Part shown: positions 5,911 through 29,002 of the stretch, piece by piece
Layout of the letters: the number at the start of each line of letters is the position of its first letter
How positions within the stretch are numbered: position 1 is the first letter of the stretch
Assembly (NCBI GenBank): GCA_035221665.1
Contig: JAVHYY010000485.1
Location: 62,001 to 96,388, forward strand
Reading direction: 5' to 3'
Source of the DNA: Okamejei kenojei
Lineage: Eukaryota
DNA length: 34,388 nucleotides
Translations under genes and position numbers: made by a program
The notes under the pieces: model-generated
What the model was told of the DNA's origin: nothing
What the model saw: the letters and a program-made list of their open reading frames with translations, nothing else
Database searches by the model: none

Positions 5911-6582
5911 ACCAACATGATACCTGGATTAGAGAGAATTGGCTACAGGGAGAGGTGGGAGAATGTGCATAGAAGGTTTACCAGAATTCAACACGTATGC
6001 GAGAGGTAGTCTACAGGGAGAGGTTGCGCAAACTTGGAATGTTTGTTTTCGGAAGGAGATGGGAGGCTTGGTAGAAGTATATACAATTATGACACGTAGA
6101 GATAGGGTTTACCTTACCCTCCCCACTCCTCGAGGGTGGAAAGGTGAAAGACTAGATGGAATATCATTAAAGTGAGCGGGGCAAAGTTTAAAGATGTTTT
6201 GTTTGCCCAGAGTGCAGTGGGGGCTTTGAACGCAATGCCAGGAGCGGTAGTGGGGGCAGATACGTTAGTGGTGTTTAAGAGGGTTTTAGATAGGCACATG
6301 GAAGTGCAGGGAATGGGGGACTATTGATCACGTGTGGACAACAGTTTAAATTTGTGATCGGCATGGTCATTTTGGGGTTGAAGACGTGTTCCTGTGCTGT
6401 ACTGTTCCGTGTTATATTTCCAAATTTATTCTGGGTGATACATGTGTCGCTTTGAACCATTGTTGTTGAATATTCTTGCGCCCTCAATCAAATTTATTGA
6501 TGCAATATATCTTTATTTTTAATATTCTAGTATGAATCAGGGTATCTACAGGACAAAGAAAGCTGGAAGGAGTGAGAACGAT

Positions 6583-7655: not shown

Positions 7656-8006
7656 ATCCGAAATTGAAGCTGAGATCTCCCCAAGTTACAATTCTCCAGC
7701 CGTCTGACCGTGAACTTAAAAACAACGGCAAAGCCACTGTGGTTTGTCTCATCACTGATTTTTACCCGGACAACATACAAATTCAATGGATTGTCGATGA
7801 CGTTGGACAACCCAAAGATAGTCCTAACATCCATACAGATCCTAGCTCCCAAAGCGAAGACGGAGGGAAGACCTTCAGTATCAGTAGTCGCTTTAGATTG
7901 GACGCCCGAGATTACGCAAAGGCCAAGAAGGTCGTCTGTCAAGTAGATCACTACAGGAATGGATCTACGCCACAAACTGAACAGGAAACCCACATCATCA
8001 AACACG
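7656..8006 (+). CDS. TRBC: T-cell receptor beta constant region exon 1 (Ig C1-set domain)
   Basis: Acceptor ...ctctttcag|AT CCG and donor CAC G|gtgaaa; 351 nt, phase 1 at both ends. Translates (D)PKLKLRSPQVTILQPSDRELKNNGKATVVCLITDFYPDNIQIQW...IHTDPSS...FSISSRFRL...VVCQVDHYRNGS...IIKH. Contains the C1-set Cys, Trp and Cys plus Cbeta-type motifs (KATxVCL, FYPD, TDP, SSRxR). Confidence 0.95.
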
Positions 8007-8313
8007 GTGAAATTTCTAACCGTAATGTCTTGTAAAGTTGTAGCATGACATCCCAACGTCTACACTTGATGCTCTCACTGATGATGGTCAGTGTGCCAAA
8101 AGCCTACTTAACCACCCTATCTACTTGTGATGCCACTTTTGAAGATCATCTTCCCAATAACAGGGTGACCAAAACGTTACAAAATATTCCATATGTGTCC
8201 TCACCAATATCGTGTGCAACTGTAATATGGCCTCCCAAATTATATTTTTACTTCTAATTTGTTCTTGGTCTTCATCAGTCAGGGTATTGGGTATATTTAT
8301 GTTCTTTTAACAG

Positions 8314-8406
8314 AAGCTGAATTTCAAACAATGGAAGCTGACTTATCTGATTCTCATTTGTAAAACTATCGTCTGTGAAATAATTGTTTCTGCTTTAGCT
8401 TGCAAA
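8314..8406 (+). pseudogene. Degenerate duplicate of the TRBC transmembrane exon (pseudo-exon or alternative exon) in intron 1
   Basis: Aligns with 14631-14731, including the acceptor (tttatgttcttttaacag vs tttatattcctttaacag). An 8-nt deletion after ACA ATG shifts the frame. The shifted frame reads KLTYLILICKTIVCEIIVSALACK. The gtaagt donor is absent. Confidence 0.88.
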
Positions 8407-8645
8407 AGTGCCACAACAATCCCTCTGTCTCCAGTGGAATAACAACCATGGTTTTAGTATCTGGAAGGGATGCCAAAACCCATAAGGGCATATGATAGGA
8501 GCAGAACGAGGCCATTATGCCCATCAAGTCTACTCCGCGATTTAATCACGGCTAATCAAAATCTTCCTCCTAAAATCATTCTCCTAACTTCCCCCTATAC
8601 CTCTTGACACCCGTACCAATCGGAAATCTATGTCTGCCTTCAAAA

Positions 8646-8680
8646 TAATTGTTATATGGTTATATGTTATATGGTTATAT
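8646..8680 (+). mobile_element. Tail-only micro-insertion of the young CR1 family, (TTATATGG)n
   Basis: taattgttatatggttatatgttatatggttatat matches the extreme 3' end at 28974-29002 and interrupts an older antisense CR1 fragment. Confidence 0.7.
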
Positions 8681-9474: not shown

Positions 9475-12290
9475 ATAACCATATAACCATATAACAATTA
9501 CAGCACGGAAACAGGCCCTCTCGGCCCTTCCAGTCCGTGCTGTAGTCCCCTAGTCCCATCTACCTGCGCTAAGACCATACCCCTCCATTCCCTTCACGTC
9601 CATATACCTATCCACTTTACTCTTAAATGTTAAAATCGATCCTGCCTCCACCACTTCTGCTGGAAGCTGATTCCACACAGCCACCAGAGTAAAGAAGTTC
9701 CCCCTCACGTTACCCCGAAACCTCTGTCCCTTAATTCTCATGTCATGCCATCTTGTTTGAATCTTCCCTACCCTCAATGGGAAAAACGTATCCACGTCAA
9801 CTCTGTCTATCCCTTTCATCATTTTAAAGACCTCAATCAAGTCCCCCCTTAACCTTCTGCGCTCCACAGAATAAAGACCTAACTTGTTCAACCTTTCTCT
9901 GTAACATAGTTGCTGGAACCCTGGCAACATTCTAATAAATCTCCTCTGTACTCTCTCTATTTTGTTGACATCATTCCTATAACTAGGCGACCAAAATTGT
10001 ACACCATACTCCAGAATTGGTCTTACCAGTGCCTTGTACAATTTTAACATTACTTCCCTACTCCTATATTCAATGCTCTGATTTATAAAGGCCAGCACAC
10101 CAAAGGCTTTCTTTACCACCCTATCTACATGCGATTCCACCTTCAGGGAACTATACACAGTTATTCCTAGATCCCTCTGTTCCACAGCATTCCTCAATTC
10201 CCTACCATTTACCATGTACGTCCTATTTTGATTTGTCCTGCCAAGATGTAGCACTTCACACTTATCAGCATTAAACTCCATCTGCCATCTTTCAGCCCAC
10301 TTTTCCAAATGGCCCAAATCTCTCTGTAGACATTGAAAATCTACTTCATTATCCACAACACCACCTATCTTAGTATCATCTGCATACTTACTTATCCAAT
10401 TTTCCACCCCATCATCCAGATCATTGATGTACATGACAAACAACAGTGGACCCAACACAGATCCCTGAGGCACCCCCACTGGTCACCGGCTTCCAACCTG
10501 ACAAACAGCCATCCACCATTACTCTCTGACATCTCCCATTCAGCCACTGTTGAATCCATCTTGCTACTCTGCCATTAACACCCAAAGATTGAAGCTTCTT
10601 AACCAACCTTCCATGGGGAACCTTGTCAAAGGCCTTACTGAAATCCATATAGACAACATCCACTGCTTTACCCTCATCAATTTCCCTAGTTACCGCTTCA
10701 AAAAATTCAAGAAGGTTTGTCAAATATGACCTTCCAGGCACAAATCCATGTTGACTGTTCCTGATCAGACCCTGTTGATCCAGATGCTTATATATATTAT
10801 CTCTAAGTATCCTTTCCATTAATTTGCCCACCACTGATGTCAAACTAATAGGTCTATAATTGCTAGGTTTATTCTTTGAACCCTTTTTAAACAATGGAAC
10901 AACATGCGCAGTACGCCAATCCTCCGGCACTATTCCCGTTTCTAATGACATCTGAAATATTTCTGTCATAGCTCCTGCTATTTCTACACTAACTTCCCTC
11001 AATGTCCTAGGGAATATCCTGTCAGGACCTGGAGACTTATCCACGTTTATATTTTTCAAAAGTGTCAGTACTTCCTCCTCTTTGAATCTCATAGTTTCCA
11101 TAGCTACTCTACTCTTTCCCCTCAACTCACCGAGTTCAATATCCTTCTCCTTGGTGAACACCGAAGAAAATAAATTGTTCAATATCTCCCCCATCTCTTT
11201 TGGCTCTGCAGATAGCTGTCCATTCTGGTTCTCTAATGGTCCAATTTGATCCCTCGTTATCCTTTTGCTATTAATATAGCTGTAGAAACCCTTTGGGTTT
11301 ACTTTCACCTTTCTTGCCAAAGCAACCTCATATCTTCTTTTAGCCTTCCTAATTTATTTCTTAAGATTCTTTTTACATTCTTTATACTCCTCTAGCACCT
11401 CATTTACTCCATGCCTCCTATAATTATTGTAGATATCTCTCTTTTTTCGAAACAAGTGTCCAATTTCCCTTGAAAACCATGGCTCTTTCCAATTTTTACT
11501 ATTTCCTTTCAACCTAACAGGGACATAAACATTCTGTACTCTTACAATTTCCCCTTTAAATGTCCTCCATTTCTCTTCTACATCCTTCCCATGAAACAAA
11601 GTGTCCCAATTCACTCCTTTAAAATCCTTACGCATTCCCCCAAAGTTAGCCTTTCTCCAATCAAAAATCTCTACCCTAGGTCCAGTTCTGACTCTCTCCA
11701 TAATTATATTGAAACTAATGGTATTTGTGATCACTGGTCCCGAAGTGCTCTCCAACGCATACCTCCGTCACCTGACCTGCCTCATTTCCTAACAGGAGGT
11801 CCAGCACTGCCCCTTCTCTGGTCGATACCTCTATGTACTGCTGCAAAAAACTATCCTGCACACATTTTACAAATTCCAAACCATCCAGCCCATTTACAGA
11901 ATGTGTTTCCCAGTCTAATTTTGGAAAATTGAAATCTCCCATAATCACTACCTTGTGCTTACTACTAATATCTGCTATCTCCTTACATATTTGCTCTTCC
12001 AATTCTCGCTCCCCATTTGGCGGTCTATAATACACCCCTAAAAGTGTTGCTACACCGTTACCACTTCTCAGTGCCACCCAAATAGCTTCCCTAGACGAGC
12101 CCTCTAATCTATCCTGCCAAAGCACTGCTGTAATATCTTCTCTGACAAGCAATGCAACACCTCCCCCTGTGGTCCCTCCAATTCTATCACATCTGAAGCA
12201 ACGAAATCCTGGAATATTTAGTTTCCAATCACAGCCCTCCTGCAACCATGTTTCACTGATTGTCACAACATCATATTTCCAGGTGTCAAT
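9475..12290 (-). mobile_element. Young CR1 LINE, 5'-truncated in the APE endonuclease, ORF2 frameshifted
   Basis: ORFs 11715-12266 (ETWL, GDFN), 11354-11755, 10421-11320 (KSPGPD, NYRPISL, DFSKAFD) and 9550-10479 ([14 protein letters not shown]); (CCATATAA)n tail at 9475-9495; closely similar to 26160-29002. Confidence 0.95.
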
Positions 12291-12952: not shown

Positions 12953-12973
12953 AGACTTGTGGCTTGAGTAAAG
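12953..12973 (+). CDS. TRBC: TRBC exon 2 (connecting peptide with the interchain Cys)
   Basis: ttcttcttacag|AG ACT TGT GGC TTG AGT AAA G|gtgagt; 21 nt, phase 1/1; encodes (E)TCGLSK, comparable to mammalian Cbeta EX2 DCGFTS. Confidence 0.9.
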
Positions 12974-14630
12974 GTGAGTGGCTCTACTTAAATAAGTATA
13001 CCGTCATTATTTTAAGACTGTTTACCCTTTCTGTGAGTTAAAACTTAATAGCCTCACACAGCAATATATAGAGTGCATAAATACACTTCAGCCAAACCTG
13101 CCCGCGCCAACCCACATGCCACATCTACACTATTACCGTCTGTCCGTTGTTGGCCCACATCCCTCTAATGCTTTCCTATCCAGCTAAATGTCCAAACGTT
13201 AATTAAACGTTGTGATAGTGCTTGCCATAACTACCCCCCCCCCCGCCCCCCCCACCCCCCCCCCCCATCCCACGGCAGCATGTTACATACAGTCACTGTG
13301 TAGTGAACATTGTCCCTCAGGTTCCTATCAAAACTTTCTCCCGCTCATCCCCCTCACCGTACACATATGGCCTCTGGTTCTCGATGCTCCATACTCTGGG
13401 CAAAAGACTGTGCATCTTCTTGATCTCTTCATCGCGTGATTTTGGAAAGCTCTATAAGATAACCCTCATCCTCCTACATTACAAGGATTCAAGTCCTAGC
13501 CTGACTCAACTTTTCCCTGTAGCTCAGGCCCTTGAGTCATGGCAACATTTATGTAAATATTCTTGGCATCCTTTCCCGCTTAACAACATCTTTCCATAAA
13601 TAGTGTGACCAAAACTGAACAAAATACCAAAAATGTGGCCTTACCGATGTCTAGTACAGCTGCTATATTACCTATGGCCTCTGGGTATTGATTCCCCTAT
13701 CGTGGGGGTAAAAGACTGTACATTTACCCGATCTATTCCCCTCATGATTTTATGCAATATCAGATCACATCCTCCTCCTGCGCTCCTAAGAATACATGTT
13801 TAGCCTACCCAAACTATCCATATAGCTCAGACACCCGAGTCCTGGCAACATTCTCTTAAAGCTTATCTGCACAATTTCCCGCACATCAACATATTTCCTA
13901 TAACATGGTGAATATAGTCCAAATGTGGCCTCACCAAAGTCTTCCTGTAACATGCGTTCCAAATGTCTAAACTGAAACTCTGAATAATGAAGGTAATGTG
14001 CCTCAGAAGACGGCTATGGGAATGCATCTGCCGACTCCAGCCAGCAGGAGATACAGAGCCTCGGCCGCAGGGGGGCAAATCTGACCAGTCAATCCGCCGC
14101 GGAAGTCCCGATGAGGTCGAGATTAGCACCCACACTTGGCCTCAGCGTCGCATTTTCGAGGCGGATTTCCGGGAGGGATTTCAAGTATGCTCTCGTAGCA
14201 TGTTTGAGCTAAAGGATGAGCCAGACCCCGAGTTGCTGGAAAAACAGTGGCGGTAATGTATATGTGTGTTCCCACTTTCAGGGAATTATGTACTTGGACC
14301 ACACGATCCCTCTGTACATCGATGCCGTTAAGGGTATTAGCAATAACTATAGAATTCCCCCTTGCATACGACCTCCCAAAGTGCAACATCTCGCACATGC
14401 TCAGATTACAGTCCAACCGCCATTTTTCTACCCATTTATGTAGCTGATCTCTTTTCCACTGAATACTTTGACATCTTTCTTCACAGTCCGCAACCCCAGC
14501 GTTTGTTCATTCATAAATATCCGTTATGTTAAAGTGCCTATACTACTTCAGCAAGTAAGAAGTTATTTTTTAATAAACTTTATTCTTCACTCTAGATGTT
14601 ATTTACCACATCTTTATATTCCTTTAACAG

Positions 14631-14737
14631 AAGCTAAAGTTCAGACAATGCAAACTGCGAAACTGACTTACCTGATCCTGATTTGCAAGAGTATTATTTA
14701 TGGAATAATTGTTTCCGTATTAGCTTGCAAAGCCAAG
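14631..14737 (+). CDS. TRBC: TRBC exon 3 (connecting peptide plus transmembrane)
   Basis: cctttaacag|AA GCT...GCC AAG|gtaagt; 107 nt, phase 1/0; encodes (E)AKVQTMQTAKLTYLILICKSIIYGIIVSVLACKAK, with the antigen-receptor TM pattern Y-x-I-L-x-x-K-x-x-x-Y including the intramembrane Lys. Confidence 0.93.
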
Positions 14738-18900: not shown

Positions 18901-20000
18901 CATTAAAATCCTCCCCGATAGTATTAGCAAACACTCATATAACCATATAACCATATAACATATAACCATATAACAATTACAGCACGGAAACAGGCCCTCT
19001 CGGCCCTGCCAGTCCGTGCCGACCGTTTGTTTTCCCCTAGTCCCATCTACCTGCAATATAACCATATAACAAAGTGAGTTGTATATACTCCCCCAAGGAC
19101 AATGGTTCCATTCCAGCCCACGTGCAGACCGTCCTGTTTGTACTGGTCCACCTCCCCCAGAACTGGTTCCAAGGCCCTAGCTATTTGAATCCCCCCCCCC
19201 CTTGCACCATTTTCAAGCCACGTATTAATCTGTAATATCCTCCTATTTCTACTCTGACTGGCACGTGGCGCTGGTAGTAATCCAGAGATTATTACCTTTG
19301 CCATCCTACTTTTAAGTTTATCTCCGATCTCCCTAAATTCACCTTGTTGGACCTCATCCGGTTTTTTACCTATATAGTTGGTGCCAATATGCACCACGAC
19401 AACTGGCTGTTCACCCTCCCCCTCCAGAATGTTCTGCAGCCGTTCTGTGACATCCTTGACCCTTGCACCAGGGAGGCAACTTACCATCCTGGAGTCACGT
19501 TTGCGCCCTCAGAAACTACTATTTGTTCCCCTTACAATTGAATCCCCTATTGCCATAGGACTCCACTCTCCCCCCCCCCCCCTCCTGTGCAGCGGAGCCA
19601 CAATGGTGCCATCAACTTGGCTGCTGCTGCCTTCCCCTGTAGAGCCATCTCCCCCAATAGTATCCAAAATTGTATATCTGTTTAGGAGGGAGATGACTGC
19701 AGGGGACTCCTGCACGACCTGCCTTCTACTACGCTGGCTAATGGCCACCCGTTCCCTTTTCTGTCCGCTTAACATTTACCTGTGGTGTGGCCAACTCACT
19801 GTACTTTTTCACGACTTTTCAGCATCGTGGATGCTCCAGTATTAATGCAATCGCAGCTCCAATCATTCAATGCGGTCTGCTATGAGCTGCAGCTGGACAC
19901 ATCTCCTGCAAACGTAGTCAACAGGGACACCGACCATATCCCTGATCTCCCACATTTTGCAGGATGAGCAACCCATGGGGCCGATCTCAACCGACATGGC
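15935..20000 (-). mobile_element. Older near-full-length CR1 LINE (ORF1 zinc finger plus SGNH esterase; ORF2 APE plus RT), degenerate
   Basis: ORF1 ATG at about 19997, followed by CSSC...CRRC, GDSIVRG, VVVHIGTN and DGLH; ORF2 fragments (LCLNAR, KSDH, KSPGPD, DFQKAFD, QRRFTR) with many frameshifts. Confidence 0.9.
18938..19072 (-). mobile_element. Young CR1 3'-end insertion nested in the older CR1
   Basis: (CCATATAA)n tail plus 3' UTR matching the young family; a second tail copy lies at 19056-19072. Confidence 0.85.
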
Positions 20001-20892: not shown

Positions 20893-20919
20893 ACATCTTA
20901 CAGCAAGAGGTTTGATTGA
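20893..20919 (+). CDS. TRBC: TRBC exon 4 (cytoplasmic tail plus stop)
   Basis: ttcttatttcag|ACA TCT TAC AGC AAG AGG TTT GAT TGA = TSYSKRFD*. Phase 0 matches the EX3 donor. A separate cytoplasmic exon is the TRBC pattern rather than the TRGC pattern. Confidence 0.85.
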   Translation, partial: TSYSKRFD

Positions 20920-23920: not shown

Positions 23921-24272
23921 CCTAACTTTCATTGGATTTGAAATCATGTTTGAATATTAATTCGCTTTGCTGCGTTAGTTAGGTGCGTTTGCTCATGAAC
24001 TGTTACCTGTTTCACTCGGAAATCAATTTTCTTGTGATCCGGATAGTTAGTTTTCCGACGATGGACATCAAACTAAAATCTGTGCAGAGGCCTTTGAATT
24101 CACCAGAGATCTTGCAATCTGCATTGTTTATGTACATGGTCATATCTTAATCAATAAAGAGAGCGTTGCTGCAAATAAATCTCTCGTTTCTCATTTACTT
24201 ATGTCATAGTTGCATAAAACGGAAATAGTAGAAATTCAAGGGGCCTGAGCTACAGAAAGTTCATAAATTATG

Positions 24273-25090
24273 TAAGTGTGAAGTGCTACATCTTGGCAGG
24301 ACAAATCAAAATAGGACGTACATAGTAAATGGTAGGGAATTGAGGAATGCTGTGGAACAGAGGGATCTAGGAATAACTGTGCATAGTTCCTTGAAGGTGG
24401 AATCGCATGTAGATAGGGTGGTAAAGAAAGCCTTTGGTGTGCTGGCCTTTATAAATCAGAGCATTGAATATAGGAGTAGGGAAGTAATGTTAAAATTGTA
24501 CAAGGCATTGGTAAGACCAATTCTGGAGTATGGTGTACAATTTTGGTCGCCTAGTTATAGGAAGGATGTCAACAAAATAGAGAGAGTACAGAGGAGATTT
24601 ACTAGAATGTTGCCAGGGTTCCAGCAACTATGTTACAGAGAAAGGTTGAACAAGTTAGGTCTTTATTCATTGGAGCGCAGAAGGTTAAGGGGGGACTTGA
24701 TTGAGGTCTTTAAAATGATGAAAGGGATAGACAGAGTTGACGCGGGTAAGCTTTTCCCATTGAGGGTAGGGAAGATTCAAACAAGAGGGCATGATATGAG
24801 AATTAAGGGACAGAAGTTTAGGGGTAACGTGAGGGGGAACTTCTTTACTCAGAGGGTGGTGGCTGTGTGGAATGAGCTTCCAGCAGAGGTGGTGGAGGCA
24901 GGATCGATTTTAACATTTAAAAGTAAAGTGGATAGGTATATGGACGTGAAGGGAATGGAGGGGTATGGTCTGAGTGCAGGTAGATGGGACTAGGGGAAAA
25001 CAAATGGTCGGCACGGACTGGAAGGGCCGAGAGGGCCTGTTTCCGTGCTGTAATTGTTATATGGTAATATGGTTATATGGTTATATATGG
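24273..25090 (+). mobile_element. Young CR1 LINE, 5'-truncated 3' end
   Basis: Open ORF2 C-terminus (24283-24993), 3' UTR and (TTATATGG)n tail. Confidence 0.95.
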
Positions 25091-28000
25091 GACGTACACA
25101 TCTGCGCCAGGTGTGTCGAGATGGGGCTCCTAAAGGATCGTGTTAGGAACCTGGAGCAGCAGCTCGACGACCTCCGTCTGGGCAGGGAGAGTGAGGAGGT
25201 AATAGAGAGGAGCTACACGGAGGCAGTCACTCCCAGACCACAGGAGGCAGACAAGTGGGTCACGGTTAGGAAGGGCAAGGGGCAGAGGCAGGGGCTAGAG
25301 AGTACCCCTGTGACCGTTCAACTGGAAAATAGGTACTCAGGTTTGAGTACGATTGGAGGAGACAGCCTAGCTGGGGGCAACAACAGCAGCCGGGCCTCCG
25401 GCACAGAGACCGGCCCTGATGCTCAGAAGGGTAGCAAAAAGAGGAGGGCAATTGTAATAGGGGACTCTATAGTTAGGGGGTCGGATAGGCGATTCTGTGG
25501 ACGCAGTCGGGAGACCCGGATGGTAGTTTGCCTCCCTGGTGCCAGGGTCTCGCATGTGTCAGAACGTGTCGAAAAGATTCTGATACGGGAGGGAGAGGAG
25601 CCTGATGTTGTGGTACACATAGGTACCAATGACATAGGCAGAAAAAGTGACGAGGTCCTGAAGGGAGAATTTAGGGAGTTGGGGGGAAATTTAAAGAGAA
25701 GGACCAAAAGGGTAACGATTTCAGGATTACTGCCTGTGCCGCGTGACAGTGAGAGTAGGAATGAAATGAGGTGGAGGCTAAATGCGTGGCTGAGGGACTG
25801 GTACAGTGGGCAGCGATTCAAGTTTCTTGATCACTGGGACCTCTTTTGGGGAAGGCATGATCTGTACGCAGAGGACGGGTTGCACTTGAACCCGAAGGGG
25901 ACCAATATCCTGGCAGGGAGATTTGCAAAGGCTACTGGGGAGATTTTAAACTAGAAAGGCTGGGGGGAGGGACTCGGGTAGAGGGGGCTAGGGGACAGGG
26001 TGTTGGGCAAGAGGCAGAGAAGGGAAGCACTCGGACCCAAAATGTAGGCGAGAAAGATGAAAAAGATAATAGACAGAGAATAAAGGATGGTGGGTTTATA
26101 AAATGTGCATATTTTTAATGCTAGGAGCATTGTAAGTAAGGTGGATTAACTTAGAGCCTGGATTGACACCTGGAAATATGATGTTGTGGCAATCAGTGAA
26201 ACATGGTTGCAGGAGGGCTGTGATTGGAAACTAAATATTCCAGGATATCGTTGCTTCCGGGGTGATAGAATTGGAGGGACCAGAGGTGGAGGTGTTGCAT
26301 TGCTTGTCAGAGAGGATATTACAGCAGTGCTTTGGCAGGATAGATTAGAGGGCTCGTCTAGGGAGGCTATTTGGGTGGAACTGAAAAGTGGGAACGGTGT
26401 AGCAACACTTTTAGGGGTGTACTATAGACCGCCAAATGGGGAGCGAGAATTGGAAGAGCAAATATGTAAGGAGATAGCAGATATTAGTAGTAAGCACAAG
26501 GTAGTGATTGTGGGAGATTTCAATTTCCCAAAAATAGACTGGGAAACACATTCTGTAAATTGGGCTGGATGGTTTGGAGTTTGTAAAATGTGTGCAGGAT
26601 AGTTTTTTGCAGCAGTACATTGAGGTACCGACCAGAGAAGGGGCAGTGCTGGACCTCCTGTTAGGAAATGAGGCAGGACAGGTGACGGAGGTATGCGTTG
26701 GTGAGCACTTCGGCACCAGTGATCACAATACCATTAGTTTCAATATAATTATGGAGCGAGTCAGAACAGGGACCTAGAGTGGAGATTTTTTGATTGGAGA
26801 AAGGCTAACTTTGAGGGAATGCGTGAGGATTTTAAAGGAGTGAATTGGGACACTTTGTTTCATGGGAAGGATGTAGAAGAGAAATGGAGGACATTTAAAG
26901 GGGAAATTGTAAGAGTACAGAATCTTTATGTCCCTGTTAGGTTGAAAGGAAATAGTAAAAAATTGGAAAGAGCCATGGTTTTCAAGGGAAATTAGACACT
27001 TGTTTCGAAAAAAGAAAGATATCTACAATAATTATAGGAGGCATGGAGTAAATGAGGTGCTAGAGGAGTATAAAGAATGTAAAAAAGAATCTTAAGAAAG
27101 AAATTAGGAAGGCTAAAAGAAGATATGAGGTTGCTTTGGCAAGAAATGTGAAAGTAAATCCAAAGGGTTTCTACAGCTATATTAATAGCAAAAGGATAAC
27201 GAGGGATAAAATTGGCCCATTAGAGAACCAGAATGGACAGCTATCTGCAGAGCCAAAAGAGATGGGGGAGATATTGAACAATTTCTTTTCTTCGGTATTC
27301 ACCAAGGAGAAGGATCTGGAACTCTGTGAGGTAAGGGAAAAAAGTAGAGTAGCTATGGAAACTATGAGATTCAAAGAGGAGGAAGTACTGACACTTTGAA
27401 AAATATAAAGGTGGATAAGTCTCCAGGTCCTGACAGGATATTCCCTAGGACATTGAGGGAAGTTAGTGTAGAAATAGCAGGAGCTATGACAGAAATATTT
27501 CAAATGTCATTAGAAACGGGAATAGTGCCGGAGGATTGGCGTACTGCGCATGTTGTTTCCATTGTTTAAAAAGGGTTCAAAGAATAAACCTAGCAATTAT
27601 AGACCTATTAGTTTGACATCAGTGGTGGGCAAAATTAATGGAAAGGATACTTGGAGATAATATATATAAGCATCTGGATAAACAGGGTCTGATCAGGAAC
27701 AGTCAACATGGATTTGTGCCTGGAAGGTCATGTTTGACAAACCTTCTTGAATTTTTTTGAAGCGGTAACTAGGGAATTGATGAGGGTAAAGCAGTGGATG
27801 TTGTCTATATGGATTTCAGTAAGGCTTTTGACAAGGTTCCCCATGGAAGGTTGGTTCAGAAGGTTCAATCTTTGGTGTTAATGGCGGAGTAGCAAGATGG
27901 ATTCAACAGTGGCTGAATGGGAGATGTCAGAGAGTAATGGTGGATGGCTGTTTGTCAGGTTGGAAGCCGGTGACCAGTGGGGTGCCTCAGGGATCTGTGT

Positions 28001-29002
28001 TGGGGTCCACTGTTTGTTTGTCATGTACATCAATGATCTGGATGATGGGGTGGAAAATTCGATAAGTAAGTATGCAGATGATACTGAGATAGGTGGTATT
28101 GTGGATAATGAAGTAGATTCTCAAAGTCTACAGAGAGATTTGGGCCATTTGGAAAAGTGGGCTGAAAGATGGCAGATGGAGTTTAATTGCTGATAAGTGT
28201 GAAGTGCTACATCTTGGCAGGACAAATCAAAATAGGACGTACATGGTAAATGGTAGGGAATTGAGGAATGCTGTGGAACAGAGGGATCTAGGATAACTGT
28301 GCATAGTTCCCTGAAGGTGGAATCGCATGTAGATAGGGTGGTAAAGAAAGCCTTTGGTGGGGCTGGCCTTTATAAATCAGAGCATTGAATATAGGAGTAA
28401 GGAAGTAATGTTAAAATTGTACAGGGCATTGGTAAGACCAATTCTGGAGTATGGTGTACAATTTTGGTCGCCTAGTTATAGAAGGATGTCAACAAAAATA
28501 GAGAGAGTACAGAGGAGATTTACTAAGAATGTTGCCAGGGTTCCAGCAACTATGTTACAGAGAAAGGTTGAACAAGTTAGGTCTTTATTCTTTGGAGCGC
28601 AGAAGTTTAAGGGGTGACTTGATTGAGGTATTTAAAATGATGAAAGGGATAGACAGAGTTGACGTGGATAAGCTTTTCCCATTGAGGGCAGGGAAGATTC
28701 AAACAAGAGGGCATGACATGAGAATTAAGGGACAGAAGTTTAGGGGTAAACGTGAGGGGGACCTTCTTTACTCAGAGGGTGGTGGCTGTGTGGAATGAGC
28801 TTCCAGCAGAGGTGGTGGAGGCAGGATCGATTTTAACATTTAAAATTAAAGTGGATAGGTATATGGACGTGAAGGGAATGGAGGGGTATGGTCTGAATGC
28901 AGGTAGATGGGACTAGGGGAAAACAAATGGTCGGCACGGACTGGAAGGGCCGAGAGGGCCTGTCTCCGTGCTGTAATTGTTATATGGTTATATGGTTATA
29001 TG
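25091..29002 (+). mobile_element. Young near-full-length CR1 LINE (ORF1 esterase open to 25954; ORF2 frameshifted, ends 28916)
   Basis: ORF1 has HICARC, a coiled coil, GDSIVRG, VHIGTND and DGLHL; ORF2 has APE and RT motifs with many 1-nt indels; tail at 28980-29002. Confidence 0.95.

Follow-up and report, generated by a model that had tools for sequence, protein, structure and literature searches.

Gene layout at the locus

The window, a stretch of 34,388 nucleotides of skate DNA, carries the exons of a T-cell receptor beta constant (TRBC) gene, here EX1 to EX4, together with a duplicate of the transmembrane (TM) exon EX3 that lies within intron 1 (Table 1). At the protein level, EX1 shares 83% identity with P0002 and 73% with a TCR-beta-like protein of Leucoraja erinacea. 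The LINE-derived mosaic between EX1 and the EX3 copy is made up of a short tandem repeat of a LINE piece and a fold-back inverted piece at about 8263-8294, as judged from repeat depth and opposite-strand joints. EX2-like sequence was looked for in this interval (8024-8294), and none was found.

Table 1. Features of the TRBC gene in the window (window positions)
Feature	Position	Strand	Remarks
TRBC EX1	7656-8006	+	Ig C1-set domain (Pfam E 4e-17); phase-1 donor GT at 8007
LINE-derived mosaic	8024-8294		between EX1 and EX3 copy
Copied 3' end of EX3 intron	8293-8313	+	pyrimidine tract (13/18) and AG at 8312-8313
Duplicate TM exon (EX3 copy)	8314-8406	+	frameshifted; ends 6 nt short of the donor
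8-nt deletion site	8335-8340	+	single AAGCTG vs two such hexamers 2 nt apart in the TRBC2 copy
TAA of shifted frame	8361-8363	+	CAA in organism E
Read-through tail, old TM frame	8407-8442	+	11 codons, TAA 8440-8442; homologous to TRBC2 tail
Donor-like site after 8467	8465-8473	+	GT in C35 allele and organisms B, C and E; GG (dead) in window allele
LINE insertion	9477-12289	-	missing from C35 copy; holds the first AATAAA signals after the EX3 copy (9870, 9934)
EX2	12953-12973	+	21-nt hinge exon bearing Cys; supported by spliced contigs
EX3, working TM exon	14631-14737	+	matches C-terminus of P0002 and P0003
EX4, coding part	20893-20919	+	cytoplasmic tail up to stop; X15 loose end behind 8406 reads EX3 end into EX4

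The surroundings of these exons hold several further elements. An inverted piece resembling EX4 and the 3' UTR lies at 6432-6512 on the minus strand, 1.1 kb upstream of EX1 and 74% identical over about 80 nt; the C35 allele described below has one too. Two LINE-rich insertions, at 9477-12289 (about 2.8 kb) and 24271-28995 (about 4.7 kb), are found in the window and not in the C35 copy, contain long RT and endonuclease frames and are likely polymorphic. Several LINE copies in the window carry at their ends a short repeat (TATATGGTTA-type units), e.g., at 8646-8680 and 18945-18979. Upstream of the window are four J segments (45525, 46077, 48800 and 55955 of the source contig) with heptamers reading CGCTGTG, the usual recombination-signal heptamer being CACTGTG.

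A duplicate of the transmembrane exon in intron 1

The sequence at 8293-8406 is a duplicate of TRBC exon 3 including its acceptor. When aligned to EX3 and its acceptor (14610-14731), it agrees in 93 of 122 columns (76%, E 1e-21) with a single gap of 8 nt, and the codon alignment of the copy contains no gaps beyond this deletion. The coordinates of the original prediction hold. It had placed an EX3 paralogue starting 307 nt past the EX1 donor, out of order before the Cys-bearing EX2 and with a same-phase acceptor: the phase at the AG does match that of the EX1 donor. Only about 20 nt of the EX3 intron were copied along with the exon; the acceptor tract of the copy is as pyrimidine-rich as EX3's own, and the branch-like motif at -26 of EX3 is not among the copied sequence.

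A splice from EX1 to 8314 would produce the 16-residue tail exactly as originally written, ending at the TAA at 8361-8363. The original TM frame is broken by the 8-nt deletion and is out of reach from the 8314 acceptor, and the donor is lost. Rescue of the TM frame through other acceptors can be rejected from a reading of the sequence, as the AGs that end at 8316 and 8337 stay in the shifted frame, and a start from the AGs at 8278 and 8282 soon meets a stop. The prediction was also right that no canonical AATAAA follows closely, the first being at 9870, about 1.5 kb away; variant poly(A) hexamers start only at a distance of 400 nt or more. A genome search with 8396-8476 returned no match besides the allele, and a Pfam search with the TM peptides returned no match. 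An inverted EX4-like piece behind the copy was considered and is not claimed: TRBC2 has a 12-nt match, a level reached in 5 of 500 shuffles, and the window has none (393 of 500 shuffles).

The 8-nt deletion and the alleles

A 97% identical copy of the window is present at C35:3.609 Mb; it bears the same 8-nt deletion and is likely the other allele. A third gene at C35:3.61 Mb is an unlikely alternative, because some 30 kb of this region align with the window in the same order at 92-97% and because run X3 contains two contigs spanning the EX3 copy, both with the deletion, that have 0 and 3 other letters, respectively, and 0 gaps. The deletion is also found in organism B (X8 contig 8081-8497, 21 other letters, 0 gaps), organism C (X9 contig 8168-8520, 21 other letters, 0 gaps) and organism E (X12 contig, 622 letters over 623 places, one gap), while the X16 contig ends at 8294 and the X15 contig starts at 8347, so neither covers it. 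With the deletion present in the C35 copy and in contigs of X3, X8, X9 and X12, an assembly error as its source is ruled out. From the hexamers at the site, it likely arose by slippage between two AAGCTG units.

The window and the C35 allele have two replacement differences inside the 16-residue tail. Their coding sequences also diverge considerably: EX1 has 8 differences in 351 nt, which leaves 95% amino-acid identity, and EX3 has 4 in 107 nt, three of them replacements. Organism C additionally has a 45-nt deletion in intron 1 at window positions 8123-8167 (runs X16 and X9).

A second TRBC gene with an open copy

A second, inverted TRBC gene (TRBC2) lies about 300 kb away, with its EX1 at C35:3310297-3309947 (minus strand) showing 76% amino-acid identity; runs X9 and X15 contain spliced contigs of both TRBC genes. 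TRBC2 spans C35:3310297-3295052 (minus) and points away from the first gene, with a J segment at 3330680. Its intron 1 also contains an EX3 copy, which begins 501 nt past EX1, is preceded by the LINE flank known from the window and is followed by a homologous 70 nt. In a tree of the copies and EX3 exons (7 rows, two short psiB stubs being left out), the three intron-1 copies and the four EX3 exons fall on separate sides of a branch with support 99/95. Because the copy occupies the same place with the same flank in both genes, and because of this split in the tree, the EX3 copy is older than the TRBC duplication.

The TRBC2 copy (C35:3309445-3309306, minus) does not have the 8-nt deletion and has instead its own in-frame 6-nt deletion, which removes two TM codons. 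It remains open for 46 codons, with an AG acceptor, a TM lysine and a 14-residue tail, and its best 19-residue hydropathy is 2.14 as compared to 2.28-2.44 for EX3, whereas the window copy has no open TM segment. An ATTAAA is located 314 nt behind its acceptor, and a donor-like AAG|GTA is present at the place matching the window's 8467 site. Both intron-1 copies are without the second TM tyrosine, which is kept in all four EX3-bearing proteins retrieved; tyrosines in the TM segment are needed in mammals according to the titles of references 55-56 of PMC13107469.

Further EX3-type debris is found around TRBC2. A 40-nt EX3 stub with the same LINE flank, psiB, sits between EX2 and EX3 of TRBC2 (C35:3299589, minus), and a second such stub, also between EX2 and EX3, is at about C35:3273390 (minus) in a block that has no EX1; psiB stubs were not found in the window's gene. 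This EX1-less block is arranged EX2-psiB-EX3-EX4 (C35:3274711-3268728), about 27 kb behind TRBC2, and its EX3 is frameshifted by a 2-nt deletion. The wider EX1-less duplicate of the 3' part of TRBC2 (C35:3279573-3266749, minus) is 77-87% identical, and the splice sites of its EX2 and EX4 look intact. All three other broken EX3-type copies of the locus (the two psiB stubs and the block EX3) have kept their AG. As such, the intact acceptor that the original prediction had stressed does exist in the window's copy, but its retention says little about use.

In their non-majority states, the LINE units that follow EX1 agree with the flank of the psiB stubs, and the two units of TRBC2 are joined without a scar. 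Since the units trace to one LINE copy and join scarless, EX2 was likely already absent between EX1 and the copy when the two genes split, a reading of sequence states for which the yardstick of LINE origin comprises only 6 and 25 unrelated copies. Separate loss of a former EX2 in each gene through recombination between two different LINEs is disfavoured, given that all units come from one LINE copy by this weak yardstick.

Trace of past selection on the transmembrane frame

The copies of the two genes differ at 11 of the 87 shared columns, as opposed to 276 of 1107 in the neighbouring introns (Fisher p 0.009), a signal that consists of these 11 changes and a test that was chosen after inspection of the alignment. 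The same deficit is seen relative to the immediate flanks (82 of 334, p 0.02) and relative to the upstream LINE flank alone (59 of 265, p 0.06). Read in the TM frame, the differences comprise 6 synonymous and 5 replacement changes (dS 0.36, dN 0.08, ratio 0.22); for comparison, the live EX3 pair gives ratios of 0.27-0.38 and EX1 gives 0.47. The other two frames of the copy have ratios of 2.2 and 1.15, and the frame behind the deletion shows no constraint. Under neutral simulation at three rates, no rate gave five or fewer replacements in more than 0.5% of 4000 runs, and p was 0.007 when synonymous sites of the live EX1 and EX3 served as the yardstick; the synonymous share of changes alone gives p 0.02-0.04.

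Synonymous divergence between the copies (pS 0.28) lies within the range of introns and live-exon synonymous sites (0.22-0.30), and replacement divergence is 0.08. Inspection of the codon alignment shows that nine of the 11 differences occur in a single copy only, on which basis copying from the present EX3 exons was rejected as the cause of the low dN. The read-through tail behind the TM segment is unconstrained (pN 0.28, pS 0.25). The frameshifted EX3 of the EX1-less block, when compared with a live EX3, has 4 replacement and 5 synonymous changes with pN below pS, so broken copies at this locus can also show pN < pS; in that pair, one side is a live exon. Taken as a whole, the substitutions between the two copies, though few, bear a trace of past purifying selection on the old TM frame.

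Splicing seen in transcript contigs

Eight of the 24 runs listed were compared; X21-X24, which carry the same species label and have next to no shared words, and four S1 runs were left out. Four of the runs are RNA-like: X18 is labelled "RNA?", and X6, X9 and X15 are small, unlabelled runs in which contigs depart from the genomic sequence at the EX1 donor, the basis on which they were classed. Canonical EX1-EX2-EX3 joins are present in three of these four (X15, X18 and X9). For instance, contigs of X18 and X15 join 8006 to 8334 with 49 letters between, which are EX2 (21) and 28 nt of EX3, and the remaining letters shown of these contigs match EX3. In X9, the two contigs that go beyond 8006 likewise run into EX2-EX3, and so does a second X15 contig. 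This holds for the TRBC2-type contigs leaving 8006 in X9 and X15, which were compared with TRBC1 sequence only, at 80% likeness. In the fourth run, X6 (organism A, small), the match of two EX1 contigs breaks off at 8006 and nothing covers 8298-8473; it was not counted among those with joins.

The 8006^8314 junction proposed in the original prediction was found in the contigs of none of the four RNA-like runs, contigs being a form of data that drops rare forms and the tissues being unrecorded. An X9 contig (8168-8520) passes unspliced through both the acceptor and the donor-like site, and an X15 contig is unbroken across the donor-like site. Protein searches yielded four relatives, one among 3 candidates and three among 50, each with a canonical EX2-EX3-EX4 end, two Mustelus isoforms among them differing at the N-terminus only. 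The peptide of the TRBC2 copy had no match among 8 candidate proteins in what was a weak search.

Origin and fate of the copy

We consider it reasonably probable that the EX3 copy, which predates the TRBC split, was formerly a second coding membrane anchor and has been put out of use in the window's gene by the 8-nt deletion. Under this model, the TM exon with about 20 nt of its intron would have been duplicated together with a rearranged LINE piece and have landed 17 nt plus LINE behind EX1. The copy would then have been under TM-frame selection for much of the time since the genes split, and splicing from EX1 to it would have given a hinge-less, Cys-less, membrane-bound beta chain with the read-through tail; the direct EX1-to-copy splice is inferred from TM-frame selection with no EX2 in front. 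As the TRBC2 copy has no frameshift, the former product was likely membrane-bound and not soluble. Slippage at AAGCTG would have killed this gene's copy in a common ancestor of organisms A, B, C and E, and today the copy would drift and be removed within intron 1. The copies of the two genes each have a deletion of their own and lack a donor. The isoform would be one that was live in the past, and neither copy is part of any transcript seen in the contigs. Among the three options offered in the original prediction, that of a dead relic fits this gene, with its frame broken, its donor lost and its contigs using EX2-EX3. It is rather improbable, on the other hand, that a hinge-less, non-disulfide-linked beta chain with the 14-residue tail is a second, mutually exclusive anchor in skates that is still used at a low level from TRBC2.

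The copy could instead have been dead on arrival, as debris of repeated local duplications of 3' exons that was never used, with the low replacement rate due to chance or a short conversion between the two genes. The locus is rich in such debris (the two 40-nt psiB stubs, the EX1-less block and the inverted piece at 6432-6512), the copy came with neither a donor nor the branch-like motif of EX3, its tail is unconstrained and no transcript with the copy was seen in the contigs. However, conversion would lower synonymous and replacement divergence alike, whereas pS is 0.28 as in introns and dN is 0.08, and the signal is confined to the TM frame; we regard this account as unlikely, although it deserves serious consideration. 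Use of the copy as a poison exon would require a 154-nt cassette (8314-8467) that is sometimes included and whose early stop leads to nonsense-mediated decay, trimming TCR-beta output. Compatible with such a cassette are the GT that the C35 allele and organisms B, C and E have at 8468-8469, the donor-like AAG|GTA in TRBC2 and an acceptor tract as pyrimidine-rich as that of EX3. Yet the GT is lost in the window's own allele, the X9 contig crosses both sites and the X15 contig the donor-like site without a break, constraint is missing outside the old TM frame and broken copies elsewhere keep their AG as well, making this possibility very unlikely.

The option foremost in the original prediction, an exapted terminal exon through which the beta chain would become soluble and end in 16 acidic-tail residues in the manner of secreted IgH, is the least compatible with these data, and we hold it to be extremely improbable. 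Its acceptor is in phase, its tail is hydrophilic (mean hydropathy -0.66) and the deletion that creates its frame is common to organisms A, B, C and E. Against this, the stop reads CAA in organism E, two replacements separate the alleles within only 16 residues, and the C35 allele has no AATAAA or ATTAAA from the copy to EX2, the window's first such signal being in an allele-specific LINE; that is, neither a nearby poly(A) signal nor a conserved tail and stop, as expected of a secreted form, was found. The frameshift is absent from the paralogue, the shifted frames are unconstrained while selection is seen in the TM frame only, and all joints seen are canonical, with no 8006^8314 among the contigs. 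The prediction of a TM-less soluble Cbeta is therefore not upheld. The element is a decayed duplicate of the TRBC TM exon that is real and old, and soluble TCR-beta cannot credibly be expected from it.

Comparison with known systems

Intronic pseudoexons arising from tandem exon duplication are exon-like sequences that have kept their AG, lost their donor, become frameshifted and are skipped in mRNA. The skate copy resembles them in its kept AG, lost donor and frameshift and in the canonical skipping in the contigs seen, and differs from the usual case in having a measurable trace of past selection in the original frame and an open counterpart in a paralogous gene. Mouse C-beta-0, an optional exon between J and EX1 that is not known to derive from a TM exon, is similar in being an optional exon in a TRBC transcript and different in place and origin. 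In IgH, the secretory tail directly continues the last C exon and is served by a poly(A) site of its own. The skate arrangement is like IgH in that a second 3' ending lies directly behind the last Ig domain, but this ending is a separate TM-derived exon that lacks both a canonical signal close by and a conserved stop and was seen in no transcript. Ferret long reads, in the part of PMC11998538 drawn on here, give secreted and membrane forms for IgH and one form for TRBC, other splice events being rare, and a review describes the TCR as always membrane bound (PMC6795676).

The part of PMC10464911 on trout TRBC genes gives them four exons. The skate gene is like these in having a C domain in EX1 followed by EX2, EX3 and EX4, with phase-1, phase-1 and phase-0 splicing to which the contigs seen conform. 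Unlike trout TRBC, the skate locus has extra copies resembling EX3 in its first two introns, as well as a 3' block without EX1; nothing of this kind is reported for trout in that part of the paper. Exon duplication within a TCR constant gene, and a chain without the interchain cysteine, have a parallel in human TRGC2, where exon 2 is duplicated or triplicated and the cysteine is absent, as described in PMC7349638. There, however, it is the hinge exon that is duplicated, the copies are in order and included, and Cys was lost by substitution (PMC7349638); the skate copy is a TM exon placed before the hinge exon, usable only instead of EX2-EX4 and frameshifted in this gene. A literature search by title and start of abstract, mostly outside subscription literature, found neither a duplicate TRBC TM exon nor a soluble TCR-beta splice form in cartilaginous fish.

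For annotation, the EX3 copies and the EX1-less block could mislead gene models at the TRBC locus. As a dead relic, the copy in the window changes nothing in models of T-cell biology, and it would record that a TCR-beta gene once had a selected second TM exon ahead of the hinge. Its interest lies in this trace of past selection and in the open TRBC2 copy, which is the best candidate for a live alternative anchor. If the TRBC2 copy is still spliced, it would provide a naturally occurring beta chain that has no interchain cysteine and whose CD3-facing helix is altered, made through alternative splicing, a device known from IgH and not from TRBC in the portions of the cited papers used above. If true, this would offer a natural test, in a jawed vertebrate of an early-branching lineage, of the roles played by the disulfide of the hinge and by the second TM tyrosine.
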